Source: an uncultured virus (IMG/VR IMGVR_UViG_3300049255_000202)
Lineage: Duplodnaviria; Heunggongvirae; Uroviricota; Caudoviricetes
IMG/VR virus record: IMGVR_UViG_3300049255_000202
Direction: 5' to 3' (one strand)
Length of the DNA: 20,000 nt
The translations under genes were made by a program, and so were the position numbers. Under the pieces are notes generated by a model, which was given only the letters and a program-made list of their open reading frames with translations, was not told the origin of the DNA and did no database searches. Every line of letters starts with the position of its first letter. Within the stretch, counting starts at the first letter, position 1. Of this stretch, positions 756-15,623 are shown one piece after another.

Positions 756-1388
756 GAATCCTTCCCGAGGTGGAAAGATTCTTCTCCTAGCTCGACCTCT
801 TGCGCGCTCGGCCGATGAACAGGTCGAACAACGGCCGGTGCTCGCGGCACAGGGCGAGGAAGCCCTCGTCGTAAGCCTCAAAAAGGGCGAGTCAATCACG
901 CTGGAGTACAACAACGGGTGGCAAGTCATCGACCGCAAGCCGGACGCGGATTCGGTGCCCCGACGAACGTCCTGTAGATTCCTCGGCCATGCCCCCGCCC
1001 GATCCCGTTCGGAGGTCAGGAGATCAACGCCATCATCTACGCCGGCAAGGGTCCGCAGCTCCGGTACATCCTCTCGGAGAAGCAGCGGGCTTACGCAGAG
1101 GCCAAGATGCTCGTGCTTCTCCAGGTGGCATACGAAACCTTCTGCCAGGAGAGAGAAATTTCCTGGGGTCGCGTGTGCCGCATCGTCGAGGAGTTGGAGC
1201 TTGCGGCGTAGGTCACTCCTCGTCCGCGAGGAGCCTTTGCCAAGATTCGCGGGGTTGCCTGAGGATCGCCCTCGGATTTCGGGCCCGGGACCGAAGTTTG
1301 TCGGGCCTGGAACTCGTTCAAGATGCTCGCGAAGCGCAAGAATCAAGAGCGGTATCGGTGCGTCGTGGACTTCCTCTTCTGCACCTAA
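751..1388 (+). pseudogene. Lower-GC hypothetical gene, multiply frameshifted, start not visible
   Basis: Protein-like segments in alternating frames: GEEALVVSLKKGESITLEYNNGWQVID / PIPFGGQEINAIIYAGKGPQLRYILSEKQRAYAEAKMLVLLQVAYETFC / DFGPGTEVCRAWNSFKMLAKRKNQERYRCVVDFLFCT-TAA. Confidence 0.45.
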
Positions 1389-1406
1389 GCTCTCGAGCAT
1401 CAACCC

Positions 1407-1625
1407 TCAAGACGAGTATCGGAAACGCGATATTTCTATCGCAATCTCGATAAACCCTCGTCGAAGGGCTGGGTCGCGTCCTCGATGGCTGAGGTTCACG
1501 ACGAACGGCTCGTGCGTCACCGGAGCCGTCACCATGCCCGGCGGGATCTCCCCAGGCGGATGATGTGCGCAACCTGCGCACGCAAGGAACACGAACCCCA
1601 TCGCGGCGAGCCCGAGGTGCTGCAT
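1407..1625 (-). CDS. Putative small lipoprotein, C-terminus possibly truncated at ~1485
   Basis: MQHLGLAAMGFVFLACAGC: hydrophobic stretch plus lipobox-like CAGC. Confidence 0.5.
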   Translation of the reverse strand: MQHLGLAAMGFVFLACAGCAHHPPGEIPPGMVTAPVTHEPFVVNLSHRGRDPALRRGFIEIAIEISRFRYSS

Positions 1626-1701
1626 CGGACGCCCTCCACCCCAAGGCGTTTCAGGCAAGAACTAACGAGCCCGTCAAGGGCTCGTCCTCCTCGACTGCAC
1701 C

Positions 1702-1893
1702 GTGCGCCTGCCGGTCGCCGAGCTGAAGAAACTCACGGTTGACGAAGTTGCCGAGACCCTCCGGCTGACGCTCGCGCTCTGTCCTTCGCACGGGGAGCGG
1801 TTCGTCGAAGCCGTGCTCATGGATCTCCAGTCGTGGCCGCAGTTCGGCGAGATGCTCGACAAGAACGCCTGGCTCGCGAAGCTCTACGGCTGA
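1702..1893 (+). CDS. Hypothetical protein (63 aa)
   Basis: GC3-rich ORF MRLPVAELKKLTVDEVAETL... Confidence 0.7.
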   Translation: MRLPVAELKKLTVDEVAETLRLTLALCPSHGERFVEAVLMDLQSWPQFGEMLDKNAWLAKLYG

Positions 1894-1895
1894 CG

Positions 1896-2129
1896 GTGGA
1901 GGCGCTCTACTTCTGCGGCCGGTGCTCGGCCGTCACGCACGACGCCGAGTACGTGGGCCACGCCCGGTGCTCGGCAGGCAGCCGTTTTTCGCTCGCGCTC
2001 CGGAGGGCAGAACCCTATGTTCCGCGTGCCGGGGCCGCCGGTGCGCCCGATGCCAGGGATGGGGTCTCGAGCCAGCCGCCAGAGGAATCGCCGAGGACCA
2101 TTGTGCCGCGGGCTATAAACGGTGTATGA
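1896..2129 (+). CDS. Small CxxC protein
   Basis: GTG 2 nt after the upstream TGA; YFCGRC...HARC; C-terminal half uncertain. Confidence 0.4.
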   Translation: MEALYFCGRCSAVTHDAEYVGHARCSAGSRFSLALRRAEPYVPRAGAAGAPDARDGVSSQPPEESPRTIVPRAINGV

Positions 2130-2136
2130 ATGGGGT

Positions 2137-2454
2137 ATGGCACGGAAGACAAGATCAAATCGCCGGAAGTATCTCATCCTCGGTCGCGACGTGAGGCGCA
2201 TCACGGGCCTCAAGTGGACCACCATCCAGTGGTGGATCTGGCGCTCGGGTTTCAAGTGGGACAAGACGGGCAAGGTGAAGAAGGGCATCGTCCGCAAGGG
2301 CCGCCTGATGCCGAAGAAGGGCAAGCGCTACTCCCAGGAAGCGATCTGGGACGTCAACGACTTCCTCCGGTACCACCCGACCGTGTTCCGCAAGCTCGCG
2401 ACCCAGAACGCCTGGACGCGGCTTCACTACGACCTCAACGACTTCGAGGACTGA
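2137..2454 (+). CDS. Basic hypothetical protein, possible HTH DNA-binding protein
   Basis: MARKTRSNRRKYLILGRDVRRITGLKWTTIQWW (HTH-like spacing); GGTGTA 10 nt upstream. Confidence 0.7.
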   Translation: MARKTRSNRRKYLILGRDVRRITGLKWTTIQWWIWRSGFKWDKTGKVKKGIVRKGRLMPKKGKRYSQEAIWDVNDFLRYHPTVFRKLATQNAWTRLHYDLNDFED

Positions 2455-2543
2455 CGGCTTCGGGCTCCCGGTGTACTCTCACCGTGTGAGCCCGAAGCGT
2501 TACGAGCGCCTCGTCGACCGCCGAGCCACATCATGCGCGGGGG

Positions 2544-2672
2544 CAAAAGCTCGATCTCGTACAGGACTTCGTGGATGTCGTGAACAGCATGTGTGCGAGG
2601 ATCTACGGGCAGCGTGCCGCGAAGAACCGGGCCAAGCGGGCGCTTGCCGCAGCCGCCGAGGATGAGCCGTGA
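2544..2672 (+). pseudogene. tnpA: IS607-family serine transposase, C-terminal fragment
   Basis: DLVQDFVDVVNSMCARIYGQRAAKNRAKRALAAA matches the characteristic IS607 TnpA C-terminus (DL..D......S.CAR.YG.R); not in the ORF track because it has no start. Confidence 0.85.
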
Positions 2673-2745
2673 GGCTCGCCCGCAAGGTCGAGATCCAGCC
2701 GACGCCGACGCAGCGGCAGGCACTCTTACAGAGCGGTACACCGAG
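2669..2745 (+). pseudogene. tnpB: TnpB N-terminal fragment (~25 codons)
   Basis: GTGA overlap with the tnpA stop; MRLARKVEIQPTPTQRQALLQ resembles the TnpB N-terminus; no RuvC or Zn-finger region follows. Confidence 0.75.
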
Positions 2746-2774
2746 GAAGCATTTGTCGCCCCGCACAGGGTGCC

Positions 2775-2941
2775 ATGCAGTTCCGCGCCGTTCAGGGGCT
2801 CACGATCGCCACCATCCTCGGCTGGTGGGCCGTCCGAGCCCTCACCCACCCCGGCTTCCACCCGATGATGCTCGTCATGGCGGCGCTCGCGCTCGGGATC
2901 TCCGAGCTGAGCTACCGCGCCGGCAAGGCCAAGGGGACTAG
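2775..2941 (+). CDS. Small two-TM membrane protein
   Basis: Two hydrophobic segments; probably ends at TAG 2939-2941 if one G is missing in the G-run at 2933-2936 (otherwise ends at 2966). Confidence 0.6.
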
Positions 2942-3333
2942 CTCTTGGGCGCGTCGAGAACCTTGATCTCGACCTTGCGCGGCTTGGCAGCCTCCCGCTT
3001 CGGGATGCGCACGGTGAGGATGCCGTCCGCGAGTTCGGCGGTGAGCTTCTCCTCGTCGAGCGTCGTGTCGAGCGTGAACGCCTCCGCGAACGAGCGAGCG
3101 GAACGGACGCCGTTTCCCTTGCGCGTCCCCTTGAGGGTGAGCACGTGGTTCTCGAGCGTGATGTCGATGTCCTCTCGCTTCATGCCGGGGACTTCCGCGA
3201 CGAACACGACGTCTTCCACGGTCTGGTGAACCTCGACGTTGCGGAACGGCCTCGAGAGGCCGAACGAACTTCCCAGCATGTCGTCGAAGAGGCGATCCAT
3301 GACGGTGAACGTGTCTTGACGGCGGCTCAGCAT
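2938..3333 (-). CDS. hsp20: Small heat-shock protein, Hsp20/alpha-crystallin family
   Basis: AEVPGMKREDIDITLENHVLTLKG, RSF...FTL, AELADGILTVRIPK and a C-terminal V-E-I motif. Confidence 0.95.
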   Translation of the reverse strand: MLSRRQDTFTVMDRLFDDMLGSSFGLSRPFRNVEVHQTVEDVVFVAEVPGMKREDIDITLENHVLTLKGTRKGNGVRSARSFAEAFTLDTTLDEEKLTAELADGILTVRIPKREAAKPRKVEIKVLDAPKS

Positions 3334-3374
3334 GCGCCGAACCTAAATCTCCGATCGTGACCGTCAAGAGCGCG

Positions 3375-3755
3375 CTAGTTGAGGAGCGCGTCCTCGCCAC
3401 CGCCACTCTGGATGAGCTTCACGGGTCCGTGGCCGATCATGTTGGCGAACGGCACGGCGTCGACGACGGGGTGAAAGACGATGTGGAGGCAAACCTCCTG
3501 CTCTTGGAACTTCCCCACGATGTCGAGACCGTCTACGTCGACCATGGAGTCGTCCGCGACCTCCTCGAAGATGTCGAGGAGGTCGGAGTAGCGGATCGTC
3601 AGCCCGTCAAGCCACACCTCCCCATCGAGAACCGTGGACTTGGGGTACACGAGGATGTGCCACGCCTCGTCGTCCACGAGGGCGAACTCGACGACCCCTT
3701 TCGTCGGTTCCAGACACGCGGCGACCTTGGTCAGGAAGGGGATGTAGTCCATCAT
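3375..3755 (-). CDS. Acidic hypothetical protein (126 aa)
   Basis: Clean GC3-rich ORF with AGGAG upstream. Confidence 0.8.
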   Translation of the reverse strand: MMDYIPFLTKVAACLEPTKGVVEFALVDDEAWHILVYPKSTVLDGEVWLDGLTIRYSDLLDIFEEVADDSMVDVDGLDIVGKFQEQEVCLHIVFHPVVDAVPFANMIGHGPVKLIQSGGGEDALLN

Positions 3756-3862
3756 CGGGCTTCTCCTAGTCGTTGGCCTTTTCGCCGGAGATGTTCACGG
3801 GGTGCATGTGCGAGCGGAGAACGTCCAACTTTCGATCATGCCACCACCCGAGGACGAACGCG

Positions 3863-4182
3863 ATGGGTACCGTGAAGGCGACGGCCACCCATCCGGCCGC
3901 CCCCAAGCTCGAAGCGAAGCTCCGCGAGGCCGAGGAGATTTTCCGGCGCGACACGTACAACCGGGACAAGCCGAAGCGCTCGGAACTCGCGTGGGCGAAA
4001 AGATCCCCGGCGTACAAGCTCGGCGACCGAGTGCTCGCGTACAAGGACGACGAGCCGGGCACGATCCTATGCGCGGACACGCGCACCCCGGCCACTGGTT
4101 CGTCCTCATGGACAAGCCGACCGGAATGACCCGGCGCGATTTCGAGTCGATCGCGTGGGACAACCTCGTGAGGGAGACATGA
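3863..4182 (+). CDS. Hypothetical protein with a possible SH3/KOW-like C-terminal region; frameshift at the C-run 4086-4089
   Basis: MGTVKAT...YKLGDRVLAYKDDEPGTILCADTRTP joins GHWFVLMDKPTG...AWDNLVRET; ATGA coupling to the next gene. Confidence 0.65.
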
Positions 4183-5607: not shown

Positions 5608-5922
5608 CTACGCACCCGGCCGGTCCGGATGCGCGCTTAACCCTAGCCCGCCGAGCAGCGCGGCTAGCCGTGCCTCAATGGAGGCTCGGTCTCCCGAAAG
5701 CTGCCCGGCGGGCTTTCTTATCGTCTCGTGAATGACCCTGCCCTGGGCGTCGAGCACCGGCTTGGCCTTCGCGTTGGGGCTGTAGAGCGTCTTGCACGCT
5801 GGGCATCGGCCGGTCGCCATGTCCGAGCTTTTGGCGCCGCAGTTCGTGCAGGTGAACTCCCGCTTCGTGACGACGTGCGTCCACTCGGGGGAGAGAAGCC
5901 GGGCGAGCGTGAGAGCAGCCAT
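5608..5922 (-). CDS. Zinc-ribbon protein (CxxC...CxxC)
   Basis: MAALTLARLLSPEW...CTNCG...CPACK. Confidence 0.7.
   Translation of the reverse strand: MAALTLARLLSPEWTHVVTKREFTCTNCGAKSSDMATGRCPACKTLYSPNAKAKPVLDAQGRVIHETIRKPAGQLSGDRASIEARLAALLGGLGLSAHPDRPGA
5645..5714 (-). ncRNA. Putative four-way-junction structured RNA
   Basis: 15-bp closing stem (one G-U on the minus strand) enclosing three hairpins, one capped by a GAGA tetraloop. Confidence 0.5.
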
Positions 5923-5949
5923 GGCCGTTGCCCGGCGCTCGGGATCGGG

Positions 5950-6158
5950 GAGGCTAGGCTCCGGGCCGGAGGCGGGACCCCGGCAGTGGGCCCCGCGATG
6001 AACGGGCCACGTGGGGTGCCGAGGAGGGCACACGGGGTGCCGTGGCAGATCAAGCAGGTCTCGCTCAGAGAAGCGAGGCCCGATGTGTCGGCCACGAGCC
6101 GGTCGAGCCGTTCCGCAAGCTCCGCGTAGTCGATGGGCTCCGGCATGGCGTTCCCCAT
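5950..6158 (-). CDS. Hypothetical protein with CxxC; 3' end uncertain
   Basis: MGNAMPEPIDYAELAERLDRLVAD...CLICHG; GGTGTA exactly 10 nt upstream. Confidence 0.55.
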
Positions 6159-6175
6159 AACAGGAGAGTACACCG

Positions 6176-7783
6176 CTACTCGTCGGTCATGGCGGCGCGG
6201 AAGATGGCGCGCTCCTCGGCCCGAGTCATCGCCGGCCCGATCCGCTCCTCGATGAGGGCCTTGTACCCCTCGTTCAGCTCGATGCCGAGAAAGTCGCGGT
6301 CGAGATCCTTGGCGACCTCCAAGGTCGTGCCGCTTCCCGCAAAGGGGTCGAGCACGAGGTCCCCGACCTTTGAGCCGGCTTTCACGCACACCTCGGCCAG
6401 CTCGGGCGGCATCGTGGCGAAGTGCGCGCCCTTGTACGGCTTGGGGTTGATGTTCCAGACCGAGCGCTTGTTCCGACCGAGCGGGTTGATGAAGTCCCCC
6501 ATGCGCTCCGAGTTCCCGAGGCCGTGCAGAGCCCGAGCTTGGAGCGAGCCCTCGATGGCGTTCGGGTCCGCCTTCAGCTTCAGCCCGTACTCGTACCGGG
6601 CGAGGCTCTCCGGCTTGTGCGGCTCGCGGATCGAGTCGGCGTCGTAGAAGTAGCTCGAGGACTTCGCCAAGTGGAACACGTACTCATGACTTCGCGTCGT
6701 CCTGTCGTTGACCGGCTCGGGCATGCACGAGCCTTTCGCCCAGATGTTGTCGCCGCGCAGGTACCACCCAGGCTCGAATACGTCGGGCGGTTCCTCTACC
6801 CAGTCGGGGAGAGTCACATCGCTGCCAGCATTCAGGGCTCGGACCATTTCCGCGATCTCACGACGGCGAGCCACAACATCCTCGGGCGTCCGAGCGTGTC
6901 CGTTTCGGTGCCGGAGTGTCGTGTACAGCGTCCAAATGAGGGCCGCTTGGCGCCGCTTCGTCCGCAGATACGGGTACAACTCTCGGAGAAGTAGCGCGGA
7001 ATCGTGAGTGCCCATCTGCCATCGGTAACACACACGCGATCCGAGGCGGTTGTCTCGAGTGCCGTCATCGTGGACGTACACATGACCGGCGGTCTTGCCC
7101 GCGAAATAGTCCAGAGGGCCTCGGTCGCAGTTCGTGAGGAAAACGCGAACGTCATGGGTAGATGTGTGGTTCTCGCCGCGATCCAGCTCGACAAACGAGA
7201 TCGTGCCTTCCCCGTCGAGGAACCCCGCCAGCCAAGCCCTCTCTGCCTCCGGGCGGATTCGGCCCGTGTAATACGGCTGCTGTAGGGCTCTCGCTACGAG
7301 CCACGGAATCCCGATGAGGTCCTTCTCTTTGAGGCCGTCGTCGGTGATGGGCATGCGCACACCGCCCTTGGCGGCGCGGTCGGCCCAGTTGTCGTCCGTG
7401 TCTCGGCGTACCGAGCCATCTGCGTTGGGGCCGAGCGTGAAGTTGTTGAGGGCCGGCTGGTGGCTCGACGTGCGGACCTTCGTTCGGTTGTTGTAGCTGT
7501 CCCCGAGGTTGAGCCAGAGGGTCCCGTCGTCTCGCATGACACGGCGGACCTCTCGGAACACCTCGACGAGGTTGGCGACGTACTCCCGCGGGGAGCCCTC
7601 GAGCCCGATCTCGTCTCCCTTGTTCGCGTGTCCCTCGGGCAGGTACGCCCGAAGGCCGAAATACGGAGGACTCGTCACGCACGTCTGGACGATCTTGTCG
7701 GGCACCTCGCGAAGTCGCTCGAGGCAATCACCGAAGAGAACCGTGTTGCGCCATGCGTGATGCACGTAGAGCACGTCGGCCAT
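6176..7783 (-). CDS. Beta-class N4-cytosine/N6-adenine DNA methyltransferase with an in-frame LAGLIDADG insertion
   Basis: GDCL, motif IV CVTSPPY, LWLNLGDSY, KDLIGIPW, GWYLRGDNIWAK, HEYVFHL, RNKRSVW, HFATMP, motif I VLDPFAGSGTT, GIELN. The true start may be GTG 7774. Confidence 0.95.
   Translation of the reverse strand: MADVLYVHHAWRNTVLFGDCLERLREVPDKIVQTCVTSPPYFGLRAYLPEGHANKGDEIGLEGSPREYVANLVEVFREVRRVMRDDGTLWLNLGDSYNNRTKVRTSSHQPALNNFTLGPNADGSVRRDTDDNWADRAAKGGVRMPITDDGLKEKDLIGIPWLVARALQQPYYTGRIRPEAERAWLAGFLDGEGTISFVELDRGENHTSTHDVRVFLTNCDRGPLDYFAGKTAGHVYVHDDGTRDNRLGSRVCYRWQMGTHDSALLLRELYPYLRTKRRQAALIWTLYTTLRHRNGHARTPEDVVARRREIAEMVRALNAGSDVTLPDWVEEPPDVFEPGWYLRGDNIWAKGSCMPEPVNDRTTRSHEYVFHLAKSSSYFYDADSIREPHKPESLARYEYGLKLKADPNAIEGSLQARALHGLGNSERMGDFINPLGRNKRSVWNINPKPYKGAHFATMPPELAEVCVKAGSKVGDLVLDPFAGSGTTLEVAKDLDRDFLGIELNEGYKALIEERIGPAMTRAEERAIFRAAMTDE
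6770..7279 (-). mobile_element. Single-motif LAGLIDADG homing-endonuclease-like domain inserted in frame in the MTase
   Basis: AWLAGFLDGEGTI, VFLTNCD, YRWQ, LLRELYPYLRTKRRQA; splits the conserved ALQ-xx-GWYLR segment. Confidence 0.85.
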
Positions 7784-7784
7784 C

Positions 7785-7800
7785 TACACCACCCGGTGTA
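7785..7800. promoter_or_regulatory. Back-to-back GGTGTA motifs (TACACC-ACCC-GGTGTA), putative divergent promoter
   Basis: Each copy lies exactly 10 nt from an in-frame start (GTG 7774 on the minus strand, ATG 7811 on the plus strand). Confidence 0.65.
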
Positions 7801-7810
7801 TCACAGGCCC

Positions 7811-8083
7811 ATGAGTGACGAGAGCCCCGAGGAGAGACGGATCACGAGACTCGCGCGTCTATGGCACAACAAGATGTTCTACTCGTCGAAGCCCCGCACA
7901 GCGCTGGAGCAGATCGCGAAAGGGACGTCCGACGCCGCCGAGGTCGCACGCAAAGCCCTCGAAGCCCCGCGTCCCCCGAGCCCGTACAAGGGTTGGGGCG
8001 AGAACGGGATGTTCTTCACGGGGCACATGTACCCCGAGTATTACGAACTGCCGATGCGGGACTACCTCGACCCCGACGCCTGA
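7811..8083 (+). CDS. Hypothetical protein
   Basis: MSDESPEERRITRLARLWH...; GC3-rich; motif upstream. Confidence 0.75.
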   Translation: MSDESPEERRITRLARLWHNKMFYSSKPRTALEQIAKGTSDAAEVARKALEAPRPPSPYKGWGENGMFFTGHMYPEYYELPMRDYLDPDA

Positions 8084-8291
8084 ATGCGAACGGCCATCCG
8101 AGCGCTGAGCGCTTGGTCAAGGGCGGCGAAACCCCGGCGCACCGCTGGAGGATGAGAGCGCGCGATTCGAGGGAGAGGCCCCCGTTGGCCTTCGCCTGAC
8201 GAACGGTGTCTCGGAGCGCATCGACGAGTTCCGTGTGCAGCTCGCGCATGGGCGAGGGCTTCTGGTCGCTCGGGAGCTGGTCGGGCCTCAT
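8062..8291 (-). CDS. Hypothetical protein; 3' end uncertain (frameshift ~8130)
   Basis: MRPDQLPSDQKPSPMRELHTELVDALRDTV...; ATGA overlap with the upstream gene. Confidence 0.5.
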
Positions 8292-9672: not shown

Positions 9673-9904
9673 ATGAACGCACTCCCCCACTCTCTCCGCA
9701 AAGCCTTGGCCGAGTACGAGGACGGACTCGTGAAGCTCGGCTTCACGAAGGACGAGGCGTGGCTTGCGTCCAACGGTGGGCCGAGCTTCGTCGGTCGCCT
9801 CGCGGCCAAGCGTGGCACGGTGCGGATCATCGTGGCTGACGAGCGCGTGTCCGTGATCGCCTTCGAGGGGGCCGTCGGGCGGGGCGCCGTCGAGTGGGAG
9901 GCGC
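9673..9904 (+). pseudogene. Hypothetical gene interrupted by the MTase fragment
   Basis: MNALPHSLRKALAEYEDGLVKLGF...AVEWEAR, then runs out of frame into the MTase sequence. Confidence 0.55.
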
Positions 9905-11341
9905 GTCTACATCGATCCGCCGTTCATGGTGAACAACGACTTCATGGCGGACAACGCCATCGACATCGAGCTGGACGACGATGAGGACGTTCAGGCCAAG
10001 AAGGAGCCGTCGCTCGTCGAGATCCTCGCGTACAAAGACACGTGGCGGCAGGGGCTCGACTCGTTCCTCTCGATGCTCCGAGAGCGCCTCGTTCTCTTGA
10101 AGGATCTGCTCGCGCCAAGAGGCAGCATCTACGTCCACCTCGATTGGCACGCGGTTCACTACGTGAAGGTCTTGATGGACGACATCTTCGGGTACGAGCG
10201 CTTCTCGAACGAGATCATCTGGAAGCGGCGCACCGGCTACATGGGTACCTTCAACAAGCTCGGGTCGGTCACCGACACGCTCTTGGACGCGCAAGAGACT
10301 CATCCAACTCCATGGCCAGCCGAAGCCGCCGCTGAAACCACAGTTCGACTTCGTTGAGTGCCCAAAGTGCAAGAACATCGAGCGCAAGGAGAAGGCGCAG
10401 AAGAGCCGGGAGACCTTCAATGTTCGCCCCTTCACGGTCGAGAACATGGGCGTGTATCAGCGCGCCGAGCAGTGGCAGGACTTTCAGACCCGGCGGAGCC
10501 GCTACCGCGACGAGATGATCAAGGTGTTCGGCGGCGAGGTCGTGAACCACTCGCACCTGCTTCACGGTCGGAAGGGCCACTCGTGGGTGCATATCGGCCC
10601 GCTCGACGGGCCCGTGTCGGTCGCGCAGGTCTGGTCGATCGCGCGCGAGGCGCAACGCACCGACATGAAGGCGGTGACGGTCCTCTCGGCCGACTTCGAC
10701 ACACTCTCGGGTTCGGAGAAGGACGATCAAGGGGGCGACCGGCGTCGCGGTCACGATCCGAGTGATCCCCAAGAACGCCATCGACGAGGTGAAGCGCCGC
10801 TTGGAGATGCTGCGCGCCAAACCCCGACGCGCCCGTCGAGTCGATGGCGATCCCGGCGTTCTATGCGCCGCTGGCGATCCGGCTCGGCAGCCGCGTCTCG
10901 GGTCGCATGGTGCGGCTCACCCTCGAGCGGTGCGAGGTCGACATCGAGTCGTTCATCGCGAGCCAGCGTCCCGTGCTCAAGGCCGTTGCGCCGGGAATGT
11001 CCGCCGCCGCGAAGAAGAAGGCGCAGGCGGAGATCGACAAGTGGGAGACGCGCAAGCGCGAGCTGGAGAAGTGGCTCGCCAAGGCGAACACCTGGCAGAA
11101 ATTCGTGGACTTCTGGGCCGTCGACTGGGACTACCGCAGCCGTCCCGACGTTGACGATCGCCCGATCTTCGAGACCGACTGGCAGTCGTTCCGCGTGCGC
11201 AAGGGCAAGGGCGAGGTGGAGCCGCTCGTGCTCACCGCCGAGTACAAGTACGAGCAGCCGGGGCAGTACCAGGTCGCCGCGCGCGTGACGGACGTCTTCG
11301 GCAACGACGGCATCGCCACCGTCACCGCAGAGGTGAAGTGA
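9905..11341 (+). pseudogene. Type III Mod-like adenine DNA methyltransferase remnant (N-terminus and motif I region missing)
   Basis: VYIDPPF (9905-9925), AYKDTW, GSIYVHLDWH, VKVLMDDIFG, FSNEIIWKR; jump at ~10286 to TRKRLI...PFTVENMGVY; C-terminal VDFWAVDWDY, WQSFR, VTDVFGND; frameshifts at ~10727 and ~10820; no FxGxG motif. Confidence 0.85.
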
Positions 11342-14996: not shown

Positions 14997-15623
14997 TTAC
15001 TGACTCCTACACCGATTGCGGATGAGAGGGCGATCTCGCCAGTGGTCGCTCAGGACTTTCGTGTAGCCCTCCCGGTGCGCCTTCATGCGTCCGACGATGC
15101 CCGAGCCGTCCTCGACTCGCACGTAGACGCCCTCCATCCAGTCCGAGTCATCCGTCTCTGGCATGATGGCCGCGAGCGGGACCCTCAAGAGGGCGATGGA
15201 CTCCGCGAGAGCCTCGCGCCACCGACTCGTCTTGTACCGGCTCGGCCCCGTGAACGATCCGAACGCGGGCGCCTTGCCGAACTGGCCCGACCACAAGCGA
15301 GCCACGATCGAAACGTTCGCCCGAGTGAGCACCTCGTCACGCGCACGCACTCCGAGGAACCGCTCGCTCGGCCTGTCGAGCACGTCGTAGCCGATGAACC
15401 AGTCAGGCAGGGCGTCGTAGAACGCCTTGTGCTTGGCGAAGCACCATTCACCGTAGAGCACGTAGCGATCCCCAAGAGCGTCACGTAGCGCATCCATGCG
15501 TGAGGCGGCCCACCCGTGGAAGGGCGCGAACTGTCGCTCGCCGGCTCCGCCCCGTAGGACGTGGCCTCGCGATTGTAGACGAAGCTCTCCGTCCTCGAAC
15601 CAGATGCCGGAAGCTAGGCTCAC
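14997..15623 (-). pseudogene. Rnl2-like RNA ligase family protein, N-terminally truncated
   Basis: SGIWF, LQSRGHVL, YVLYGEWCFAKH..FYDALP, FIGYDVLD, MEGVYVRVE, GRMK; nucleotidyltransferase motif I (KxDG) is absent upstream of SGIWF. Confidence 0.8.

Follow-up and report, generated by a model that had tools for sequence, protein, structure and literature searches.

A LAGLIDADG endonuclease domain lying in frame within a phage DNA methyltransferase, without intein or intron

How can a homing endonuclease domain sit in the middle of another enzyme's reading frame, when such endonucleases are usually thought to persist in genes only through removal by an intron or an intein? The question is raised by a 20 kb stretch of DNA (G+C 65.4%; hereafter the window) from the uncultured virus IMGVR_UViG_3300049255_000202 (IMG/VR; Caudoviricetes), in which a DNA methyltransferase gene is interrupted, between the residues ALQ and GWYLR, by a segment that bears a LAGLIDADG motif and keeps the frame open. 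A prediction made from the sequence alone (hereafter the original prediction) had read this segment as a non-splicing homing element tolerated as a loop, or else as a domesticated DNA-binding domain that changes the targeting of the methyltransferase. Here we describe the gene, compare the history of the insert with that of its host, and argue that the insert is probably a non-splicing, in-frame homing cassette that the methyltransferase tolerates. The parts of the gene are as follows, in the order of its translation; the embedded family is the set of homologues that carry the insert.

6176..7783, minus strand: whole gene, a 535-residue predicted beta-class N6/N4 DNA methyltransferase with an embedded LAGLIDADG domain (open reading frame list and translation; stop codon 6176-6178)
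7280..7783, minus strand: N-terminal methyltransferase half, residues 1-168, with the final helix IGIPWLVARALQ (alignment with insert-free homologues; G+C at third codon positions, GC3, 0.84)
7661..7672, minus strand: catalytic motif IV SPPY, residues 38-41 (translation; conservation)
6770..7279, minus strand: insert, residues 169-338, a single-motif LAGLIDADG endonuclease domain with two linkers (translation, profile, model and fold search)
7256..7279, minus strand: N-terminal linker QPYYTGRI, residues 169-176 (conservation confined to embedded copies)
7205..7231, minus strand: LAGLIDADG motif LAGFLDGEG, residues 185-193, with E192 at the metal-binding position (alignment to the motifs of I-MsoI and I-CreI)
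6944..6973, minus strand: PYLRTKRRQA, residues 271-280, with K276 aligned to the active-site lysine region PFLKLKQKQA of I-CreI (hidden Markov model alignment)
6770..6811, minus strand: C-terminal linker LPDWVEEPPDVFEP, residues 325-338 (conservation confined to embedded copies)
6179..6769, minus strand: C-terminal methyltransferase half, residues 339-535, beginning GWYLRGDNIWAK (alignment; GC3 0.92)
6329..6349, minus strand: S-adenosylmethionine-binding motif I DPFAGSG, residues 479-485 (translation; conservation)

An endonuclease domain in the middle of a methyltransferase

Judged by family model, motifs and predicted fold, the gene product is a beta-class N6/N4 DNA methyltransferase. PF01555, the only family that Pfam detects in the 535-residue protein, matches the gene at an expectation value (E) of 1.4e-45 and does so in two stretches with a gap between them. 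The SPPY motif is invariant in an alignment of 8 sequences (A1) and at least 90% conserved in one of 118 sequences (A2), residues D479, F481, G483 and G485 of motif I are invariant across the 118 sequences, and motif IV lies upstream of motif I, as in the beta-class family; translation and conservation thus bear out the claim of the original prediction that both catalytic motifs are intact. The model of the full-length protein (mean predicted local distance difference test, pLDDT, 85.5; predicted template modelling score, pTM, 0.82) resembles M.RsrI, M.BceJIV, CcrM, M.MboIIA and M.PvuII in its core and I-CreI in its insert, the Foldseek matches to the beta-class enzymes having E values of 1e-13 to 4e-10 and target template modelling (TM) scores of 0.52-0.76. 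In three homologues (P0027, P0106 and P0271) an extra Cys-rich segment of about 80 residues (CSxC...C.C, zinc-ribbon-like) lies between AG(T/S)S and VLDPF, directly before motif I; the window's gene has no such segment.

The insert itself comprises 170 residues (QPYYTGRI...PDVFEP) that are translated without a stop between ALQ (residues 166-168) and GWYLR (residues 339-343), and it contains AWLAGFLDGEG and YPYLRTKRRQA, just where the original prediction had placed them. Insert-free homologues read ALQ-DD-GWWLR or ALRS-D-GWYLR without interruption across this site, and hence the insert is real and its borders are sharp. Of the 120 best full-length homologues, 118 have a homologous segment at the identical place, with identities ranging from 80% to 25%, which argues against a chance event. 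The further claim that ALQ-xx-GWYLR is normally contiguous in this methyltransferase family therefore holds for insert-free homologues but not across the board, since the occupied form is itself a large family.

As to the identity of the insert, PHROG 5046 matches it at E 2e-17, and no Pfam or NCBIfam family does so at E up to 1, including the Pfam families LAGLIDADG_1, LAGLIDADG_2 and LAGLIDADG_3. Because no Pfam LAGLIDADG model detects the insert, annotation pipelines label such genes just "DNA methylase". Its nearest non-embedded relatives are free-standing proteins of 140-180 residues, including annotated LAGLIDADG endonucleases of Streptomyces phages, and the free-standing proteins align end to end with the insert; some of them, such as P0164, match Pfam LAGLIDADG_3, unlike the embedded insert. 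A profile built from the insert and its free-standing relatives and compared with the PDB recovered I-MsoI and I-CreI over their full length (single chains, E 3e-15 to 1e-14). The structure prediction agrees with this assignment: the AlphaFold model of the insert (pLDDT 90.1) is an endonuclease fold with an alpha-beta-beta-alpha-beta-beta-alpha core, for which Foldseek returned I-CreI, I-CvuI and I-MsoI with probability 1.00 and TM scores of 0.64-0.76. Profile, model and fold search thus identify the insert as a single-motif LAGLIDADG domain of the homodimeric I-CreI/I-MsoI type.

Under closer inspection, this domain is flanked by two linkers of its own, QPYYTGRI and LPxW..EPPxxxEP, which persist in embedded copies as little as 25% identical and which the free-standing relatives lack. 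The P, Y, T and G of the N-terminal linker are invariant in a further alignment (A4) that reaches down to that identity, and among the 118 family members P170 is conserved in 115, Y172 in 101, G174 in 100 and I176 in 91. In the C-terminal linker, P326 is conserved in 118, W328 in 117, E331 in 107, P332 in 116, E337 in 113 and P338 in 105 of the 118.

Could the insert be removed from the mature enzyme as a cryptic splicing element, either an unusual intein or an intron with an open frame? There are observations that point this way. Phage methylases host other odd insertions, as reported in PMC11855218, and the same gene family hosts a true intein: P0271 (770 residues), a homologue, carries an intein with a LAGLIDADG domain of its own, a match to PF14890 and C...HN|C junctions, at the site DIVW|CKPNPMPES, 12 codons downstream of the splicing-free insert site. 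This protein illustrates a real intein in the same gene family and serves as a positive control for the detection of Hint domains. Moreover, a literal TxxH (TSTH) occurs at residues 206-209, so that the original prediction was wrong to the letter in stating that the insert has no TxxH-type block. This TSTH is no intein block B, because it is part of a loop in the endonuclease fold and distant insert lineages lack it.

The remaining evidence speaks against splicing. Pfam found no Hint model in the 535-residue protein at E up to 1, and there is no room for such a domain, as the endonuclease fold and the two short linkers fill all 170 residues. A nucleophile is lacking at both junctions, since the insert starts with Q169 (Q in 50, A in 33, D in 23, S in 4 and E in 4 members of the embedded family) and is followed by G339, a glycine in 117 of the 118 members; the C-terminal end of the insert reads F-E-P, without a terminal His-Asn. 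As regards introns, the frame is open throughout the insert, and Rfam intron models gave no match over 5800-8200 at E up to 1, the sole Rfam match being a chance microRNA outside the gene. Neither direct repeats nor a target-site duplication nor terminal inverted repeats were found at 6770 and 7279, and we found no signals for separate expression, with no ATG, GTG or TTG in frame from residue 144 to the LAGLIDADG motif and no stop codon ending the insert.

Public sequencing runs were also consulted, in which 5800-8200 is present nearly whole in several DNA runs labelled moss metagenome, of which four are possible sources of it, and in parts in metatranscriptome libraries (runs X1-X13). In X5 and X7, both junctions of the occupied form are spanned by DNA contigs. 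The RNA libraries X9 and X10, which may be a single data set under two entries, gave contigs over 6775-6974 and 7544-7694 that bridge no junction. The contigs of four public runs contain no joint that skips the insert, a weak negative given that it concerns contigs only and that those from RNA bridge neither junction. Taken together, a cryptic splicing element appears extremely improbable, and both halves of the original prediction's claim, no intein and no intron, hold fully at the level of the sequence.

Histories of the insert and of its host

How common is this architecture, and did insert and host evolve together? A search of 1.84 billion cluster representatives yielded 3919 relatives of the insert at E up to 1e-3. 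Among the best 150 of these 3919, which we classified, 71 are joined to a methyltransferase, 47 are free-standing with at most 220 residues, 31 have 221-380 residues and no methyltransferase (many of them with two matched stretches), and 1 falls outside these classes. Occupied genes were found in viral contigs (L001, L002, L006 and L007) and in contigs from metagenomes (L081-L086, among others). The species-representative genomes were scanned twice: the search for close relatives, with the insert alone as query, found none, and the alignment-based scan turned up a full embedded copy only in two contigs of metagenome-assembled genomes (L102 and L103). The empty form is abundant as well: none of the 120 best matches to the C-terminal methyltransferase part alone (residues 339-535) has the insert, and among named phages 475 records encode the methyltransferase, none covering 80% of the query and all of the empty form. 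The insert by itself was matched by tblastn in 29 phage records, and a DNA search with the whole window found no match among named phages.

Some relatives of the insert occur in other contexts. P0175, a stand-alone protein of 184 residues, falls within the clade of embedded inserts and has linker-like ends (EPYEWIIK... and ...LPSWMREP); judging from its sequence, it may represent the cassette in an escaped or an ancestral state, or else be a piece of a carrier gene. P0230 (427 residues) is an RlaP-like nucleotidyltransferase (PF10127) with an in-frame LAGLIDADG domain of the insert's clade at about residues 157-298, in which no Hint match and no visible intein-type junctions were found. As a host unrelated to the methyltransferase with an endonuclease of the same clade, P0230 hints that the strategy is portable between host proteins, and splicing-free carriage may thus extend beyond methyltransferases. 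In Gordonia phage Lennon (NC_042045.1), a MuF-like head morphogenesis gene (941-4051, minus strand) contains an in-frame intein (HEVIN|CLT... to ...ACHN|CRC), and a LAGLIDADG open reading frame related to the window's insert lies inside this gene on the opposite strand (2357-3067, plus strand). Actinophage inteins with the endonuclease in a separate reading frame have been reported (10.1101/2025.01.02.630785), and, as far as that report describes them, the arrangement in Lennon is probably already known.

To compare the two histories, we call an insert close when it is at least 50% identical to the window's and far when it is below 50%. Into the methyltransferase-only tree (LG+G4, quick search, insert columns dropped) went 72 rows, namely the window, the full set of 23 close-insert carriers, the best 20 of 123 carriers of far inserts and the best 28 of 117 insert-free enzymes, ranked by the score of their C part. 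The insert tree comprises 44 embedded and 47 free-standing rows. P0300 was left out of the trees as misaligned; it had been a candidate for a different insert at the same site and was rejected, since its 220 extra residues lie upstream of LKPKD and its ALQADGWYLR is contiguous.

At first glance, the identities already disagree. The 22 closest inserts are 69-80% identical to the window's and reside in methyltransferases that are just 41-50% identical to the window's (the 23rd, P0027, has an insert identity of 53%), and the best insert-free enzymes reach 61% identity to the window's enzyme in the C part. Along the gene, the identity between the window and the close carriers steps up sharply, exactly at the insert borders. 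The trees show the same conflict. In the insert tree, the window's insert and the 23 close ones form a clade of 24 with support 97, whereas in the methyltransferase-only tree a branch of support 97 separates the window from all 23 close-insert carriers, the window grouping instead with 22 insert-free rows and 2 far-insert carriers, and an insert-free clade of six is nested among carriers. Approximately unbiased (AU) tests rejected both a single clade of all 44 carriers (p 0.0215) and one of the window with the 23 close carriers (p 0.0236, delta log likelihood 156); the phylogenetic comparison that the original prediction had called for therefore came out as incongruent. When the 946 pairs of carriers are compared, the identity of the inserts does not correlate with that of the hosts (Spearman -0.015). 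Inserts at least 65% identical occur with hosts below 50% in 91 pairs, and hosts at least 55% identical occur with inserts below 45% in 192 pairs, as in P0020 and P0089, whose hosts share 71% and whose inserts share 34%.

At the same time, the embedded inserts hold together, as the 44 of them and P0175 form a set with support 98 against the remaining 46 free-standing rows. Because the insert and host trees conflict while the embedded inserts form one set, these alignments indicate that the embedded family had a single origin and was later exchanged among methyltransferase lineages at one fixed site.

The base composition also sets the insert apart. Its GC3 is 0.70, versus 0.84 in the N-terminal and 0.92 in the C-terminal flank, and codons ending in A or T make up 51 of 170 in the insert versus 42 of 365 in the flanks (Fisher p = 5.8e-7). 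The same relation, with the insert below both flanks, holds in four of five other distinct alleles (L081, L084, L085 and L086), the insert being higher in L083; L082 has the same insert and N flank as L081 and is cut at the contig end. The original prediction had pointed to atypical codons both in the insert and just upstream of it, and had taken them as a sign of a co-converted flank. The former part stands, the upstream signal is weak (GC3 0.78, counted from residue 151), and for co-conversion there is only a slight excess of identity over residues 151-170 (0.77 versus 0.65), too little to claim it.

A different account of these histories is that a LAGLIDADG gene was captured once, became fixed and useful in a methyltransferase subfamily, was inherited with the gene and moved between lineages by nothing more than ordinary recombination among phages. 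Its use might lie in dimerisation, in additional binding of DNA or in a nuclease activity that keeps competing phages out. A single origin of the embedded set would suit such a domesticated accessory domain, as would the conservation of the linkers down to 25% identity, and the published mycobacteriophage case discussed below looks vertically inherited in the account given of it (PMC9957025). What tells against it is the patchy distribution, with the window's enzyme among insert-free enzymes and the insert-free clade of six among carriers, together with the conflict between the two trees and the occurrence of very different insert lineages in hosts that are about 70% identical. The domain is, furthermore, not needed for methylation, given the abundance of insert-free enzymes (475 phage records, none with the insert), and the insert's GC3 is below that of the host gene in 5 of 6 distinct alleles. 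On balance, we regard domestication as the chief rival to the homing cassette and as the less likely of the two. The specific form proposed in the original prediction, a DNA-binding domain that retargets the methyltransferase, is disfavoured, as the enzyme retains a variable region of its own downstream of the insert and 116 of 118 copies still have the metal-binding acid.

Constraint, predicted dimerisation and a possible homing cycle

Active-site residues are retained throughout the family. D190, G193, K276 and Q279 are each present in all 118 embedded copies, as are P271 and A280, and E192 is the residue kept in 116. The nonsynonymous divergence (Ka) of the insert is 0.12-0.23, compared with 0.40-0.63 for the methyltransferase halves, and these sequence comparisons indicate that the insert is under purifying selection and more strongly constrained than the host halves. 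Both the low Ka and the loss of E192 in just 2 of 118 copies could also be counted in favour of a domesticated domain.

Type IIC and IIG enzymes combine nuclease and methyltransferase in one polypeptide. The preserved active site might accordingly belong to a single-chain restriction-modification enzyme, in which restriction would fall to the LAGLIDADG domain, with the methyltransferase shielding the DNA of the element itself; nuclease and methyltransferase do lie on one polypeptide here, and the authors of PMC9957025 raised the idea for their own case. LAGLIDADG enzymes read sites of about 20 bp, though, and are not known in restriction systems, with which the account in PMC9957025 agrees. 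The insert is also dispensable in most of the methyltransferase family, and its uncoupled history would break the matched specificity of nuclease and methylase. We therefore consider this explanation very unlikely.

A single-motif LAGLIDADG enzyme must dimerise to build its two active sites. For the full-length protein, a homodimer via the LAGLIDADG helices is predicted: modelled as two copies of residues 11-510, it scores 0.80 by the interaction prediction score from aligned errors (ipSAE), versus 0.00 for the best of 3 controls. Among proteins with solved structures, 20 of 30 paired ones and 1 of 23 single-chain ones attained this mark. The three dimer runs agree in at least 85% of contacts, with a partner pLDDT of 75-76. 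The tightest contacts (183:183, 187:187 and 188:188) lie in the LAGLIDADG helix, and further ones involve methyltransferase residues 150-168, 338-366 and 437-442. That the predicted dimer uses LAGLIDADG helices and methyltransferase surfaces alike, and that the pTM of 0.82 suggests a fixed arrangement of the domains, would again fit domestication.

We return to the homing cassette, for which we propose the following course of events. A gene for an I-CreI-like endonuclease of the free-standing type would have entered a phage methyltransferase gene in frame, in the loop between the helix ending in ALQ and the strand GWYLR. The insert would never be removed, at the level of RNA or of protein, so that one chimeric protein would be made, whose methyltransferase core would fold around the insertion point while the two conserved linkers would keep the endonuclease domain aside. 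The methyltransferase may survive this because the cassette occupies a surface loop and brings its own linkers. Two chimeras would then pair via their LAGLIDADG helices and form two active sites, and the dimer would cut insert-free alleles in phages that co-infect the cell or are already resident. Its target would be the coding sequence for ALQ-(x)D-GWYLR, which is uninterrupted in those alleles and split by the insert in the occupied one. The break would be repaired with the occupied allele as template, and the cassette would thereby be copied into the empty allele. Cleavage, its target and an exchange driven by the endonuclease are what we infer here. Of the two readings in the original prediction, it is accordingly the non-splicing homing element that is favoured, by the uncoupled histories, the retained active-site residues and the predicted dimer, with homing itself remaining conditional.

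Several points weigh against this proposal. Synonymous sites have reached saturation in insert and flanks alike (proportion of synonymous differences, pS, 0.65-0.87), for which reason the exchanges must be old and none can be called recent, and the DNA of the closest insert is just 67-72% identical to the window's. A near-identical pair of occupied and empty alleles was not found, the best insert-free relative being 61% identical in the C part, and the lack of a contig joining across the insert in the four runs, contigs only and hence weak, likewise offers no empty counterpart. The p values of the AU tests, at about 0.02, are near 0.05 and come from a quick LG+G4 tree. Ordinary mosaic recombination of phages, acting within the conserved motifs on either side, could separate the histories of insert and host with no nuclease involved. 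Degenerate copies, some of which would be predicted by a classical homing cycle, are nearly absent (2 of 118 without E192), and intact copies with linkers conserved to 25% identity would also fit a domain needed by the host. Finally, the dimer score may stem from likeness to solved dimers of I-CreI and of beta-class methyltransferases. An attempt to date the transfers from synonymous divergence was dropped, all pS values being saturated.

It is tempting to speculate further that, besides introns and inteins, there exists a third and widespread lifestyle of homing endonucleases, namely splicing-free in-frame homing with adaptor linkers of the element's own, portable between hosts; we offer this as a tentative and rather doubtful suggestion. 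The linkers would let the cassette drop into a surface loop, and the chimera would dimerise through the LAGLIDADG interface together with the methyltransferase, so that the element would be both selfish and structurally woven into the host enzyme. If true, this could explain why the copies are almost universally intact and evolve more slowly than their host.

Relation to known systems and meaning of the finding

How does the embedded domain compare with what is already described? With I-CreI, I-MsoI and I-CvuI it shares a size of about 150 residues, one LAGLIDADG motif, the same topology and aligned acidic and lysine positions, and a symmetric dimer via the motif helix is predicted for it. Those enzymes are encoded by group I introns, whereas the window's domain lies in the middle of a host protein and is expressed only as a fusion; it has, in addition, two extra conserved linkers, no Pfam LAGLIDADG match and about 20% identity to them. 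Among the profile matches were PDB entries entitled "Ribosomal protein 3/homing endonuclease-like fusion protein". The fungal mitochondrial rps3-LAGLIDADG proteins (I-OnuI and I-LtrI type) are in-frame fusions with a host protein without an intein, but they are two-motif monomers attached to the host protein's terminus, and the gene that contains them is intron-encoded, while the window's is a single-motif domain inserted mid-fold. The intein-borne LAGLIDADG domain of the P0271 type occurs in the same host gene family and the same conserved neighbourhood, 12 codons apart; it differs in having a Hint domain (PF14890) and C...HN|C junctions and hence being able to splice, and the window's insert has neither.

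The closest precedent is found in mycobacteriophages. A "second" LAGLIDADG endonuclease, 139 residues long, was described by Gosselin et al. 2023 (PMC9957025) as lying in frame in nine methylases of cluster F (for example, Taj_79 and Akhila_67); in their account it has no intein or intron, forms a domain of its own in the predicted structure, belongs to one clan and is vertically inherited. Those authors weighed the same two readings, a selfish element or a fused restriction-modification enzyme, and Arsenault et al. 2025 (PMC11855218) restate this lone-LAGLIDADG case. As far as these accounts go, both systems have a separate domain in frame in a phage methylase of the PF01555 type with no detectable intein or intron. 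They differ in insertion site (after DPPY versus between ALQ and GWYLR), in endonuclease lineage and in methylase subfamily: in Mantra gp64, the one cluster-F member we checked, the LAGLIDADG domain spans residues 58-160, about 20 residues after DPPY, it matches Pfam LAGLIDADG_1 (PF00961) at 6e-16, a family that does not match the window's insert, BLASTP finds only the motif shared, and the alignment of its methylase to the window's enzyme is confined to the surroundings of motifs IV and I. No Mycobacterium phage is among the 29 phage records matched by the window's insert in tblastn. There is also a difference of scale and history, the cluster-F case being reported as nine vertically inherited sequences and the present one forming a large family with conflicting histories of insert and host.

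A further insertion in a phage methylase, the ShiLan domain (PMC11855218), is described as open in the host's frame, neither intein nor intron, and disjunct in its distribution. It shares with the present insert that it is a non-splicing in-frame insertion thought to be tolerated as a loop; according to that description, its endonuclease is of the HNH type and is encoded in another reading frame, the in-frame product being poorly structured, whereas here the in-frame product is the endonuclease. In the literature we found no description of the present family or site, only the mycobacteriophage cases. The novelty implied by the original prediction is thus reduced: with an intein-less LAGLIDADG domain in phage methylases already reported in PMC9957025, the kind is in print, and it is the family, the site and the lineage that appear new.

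Elsewhere in the window, a second frame resembling an N6/N4-type methyltransferase (YIDPPF ... NEIIWKRR) runs over 9851-10357 on the plus strand, with its DPPF motif at 9914; a 143-residue open reading frame within it (9926-10354) matches PF01555 positions 24-102 of 221 (E 1e-7) and PHROG 67. This frame has stops on both sides and no motif I, and is a fragment, a frameshifted gene or a split gene. At 15000-15623 on the minus strand lies an open reading frame of 208 residues with an RNA ligase domain (PF09414, E 1.6e-21). Apart from the latter, only 3 of the 39 other open reading frames scanned across the window have a PHROG match, and so the surrounding DNA is largely unknown and phage-like.

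For phage methylases, the present family extends the two earlier reports (PMC9957025 and PMC11855218), turning a curiosity of nine sequences into a common architecture. It is a natural example of the insertion of a whole domain into a methyltransferase fold, and it offers many natural I-CreI-like enzymes whose targets can be guessed from the interrupted gene, which may aid the discovery of meganucleases. As for homing endonucleases at large, a large, old and intact family tolerated in a loop shows that splicing is not required for their persistence.

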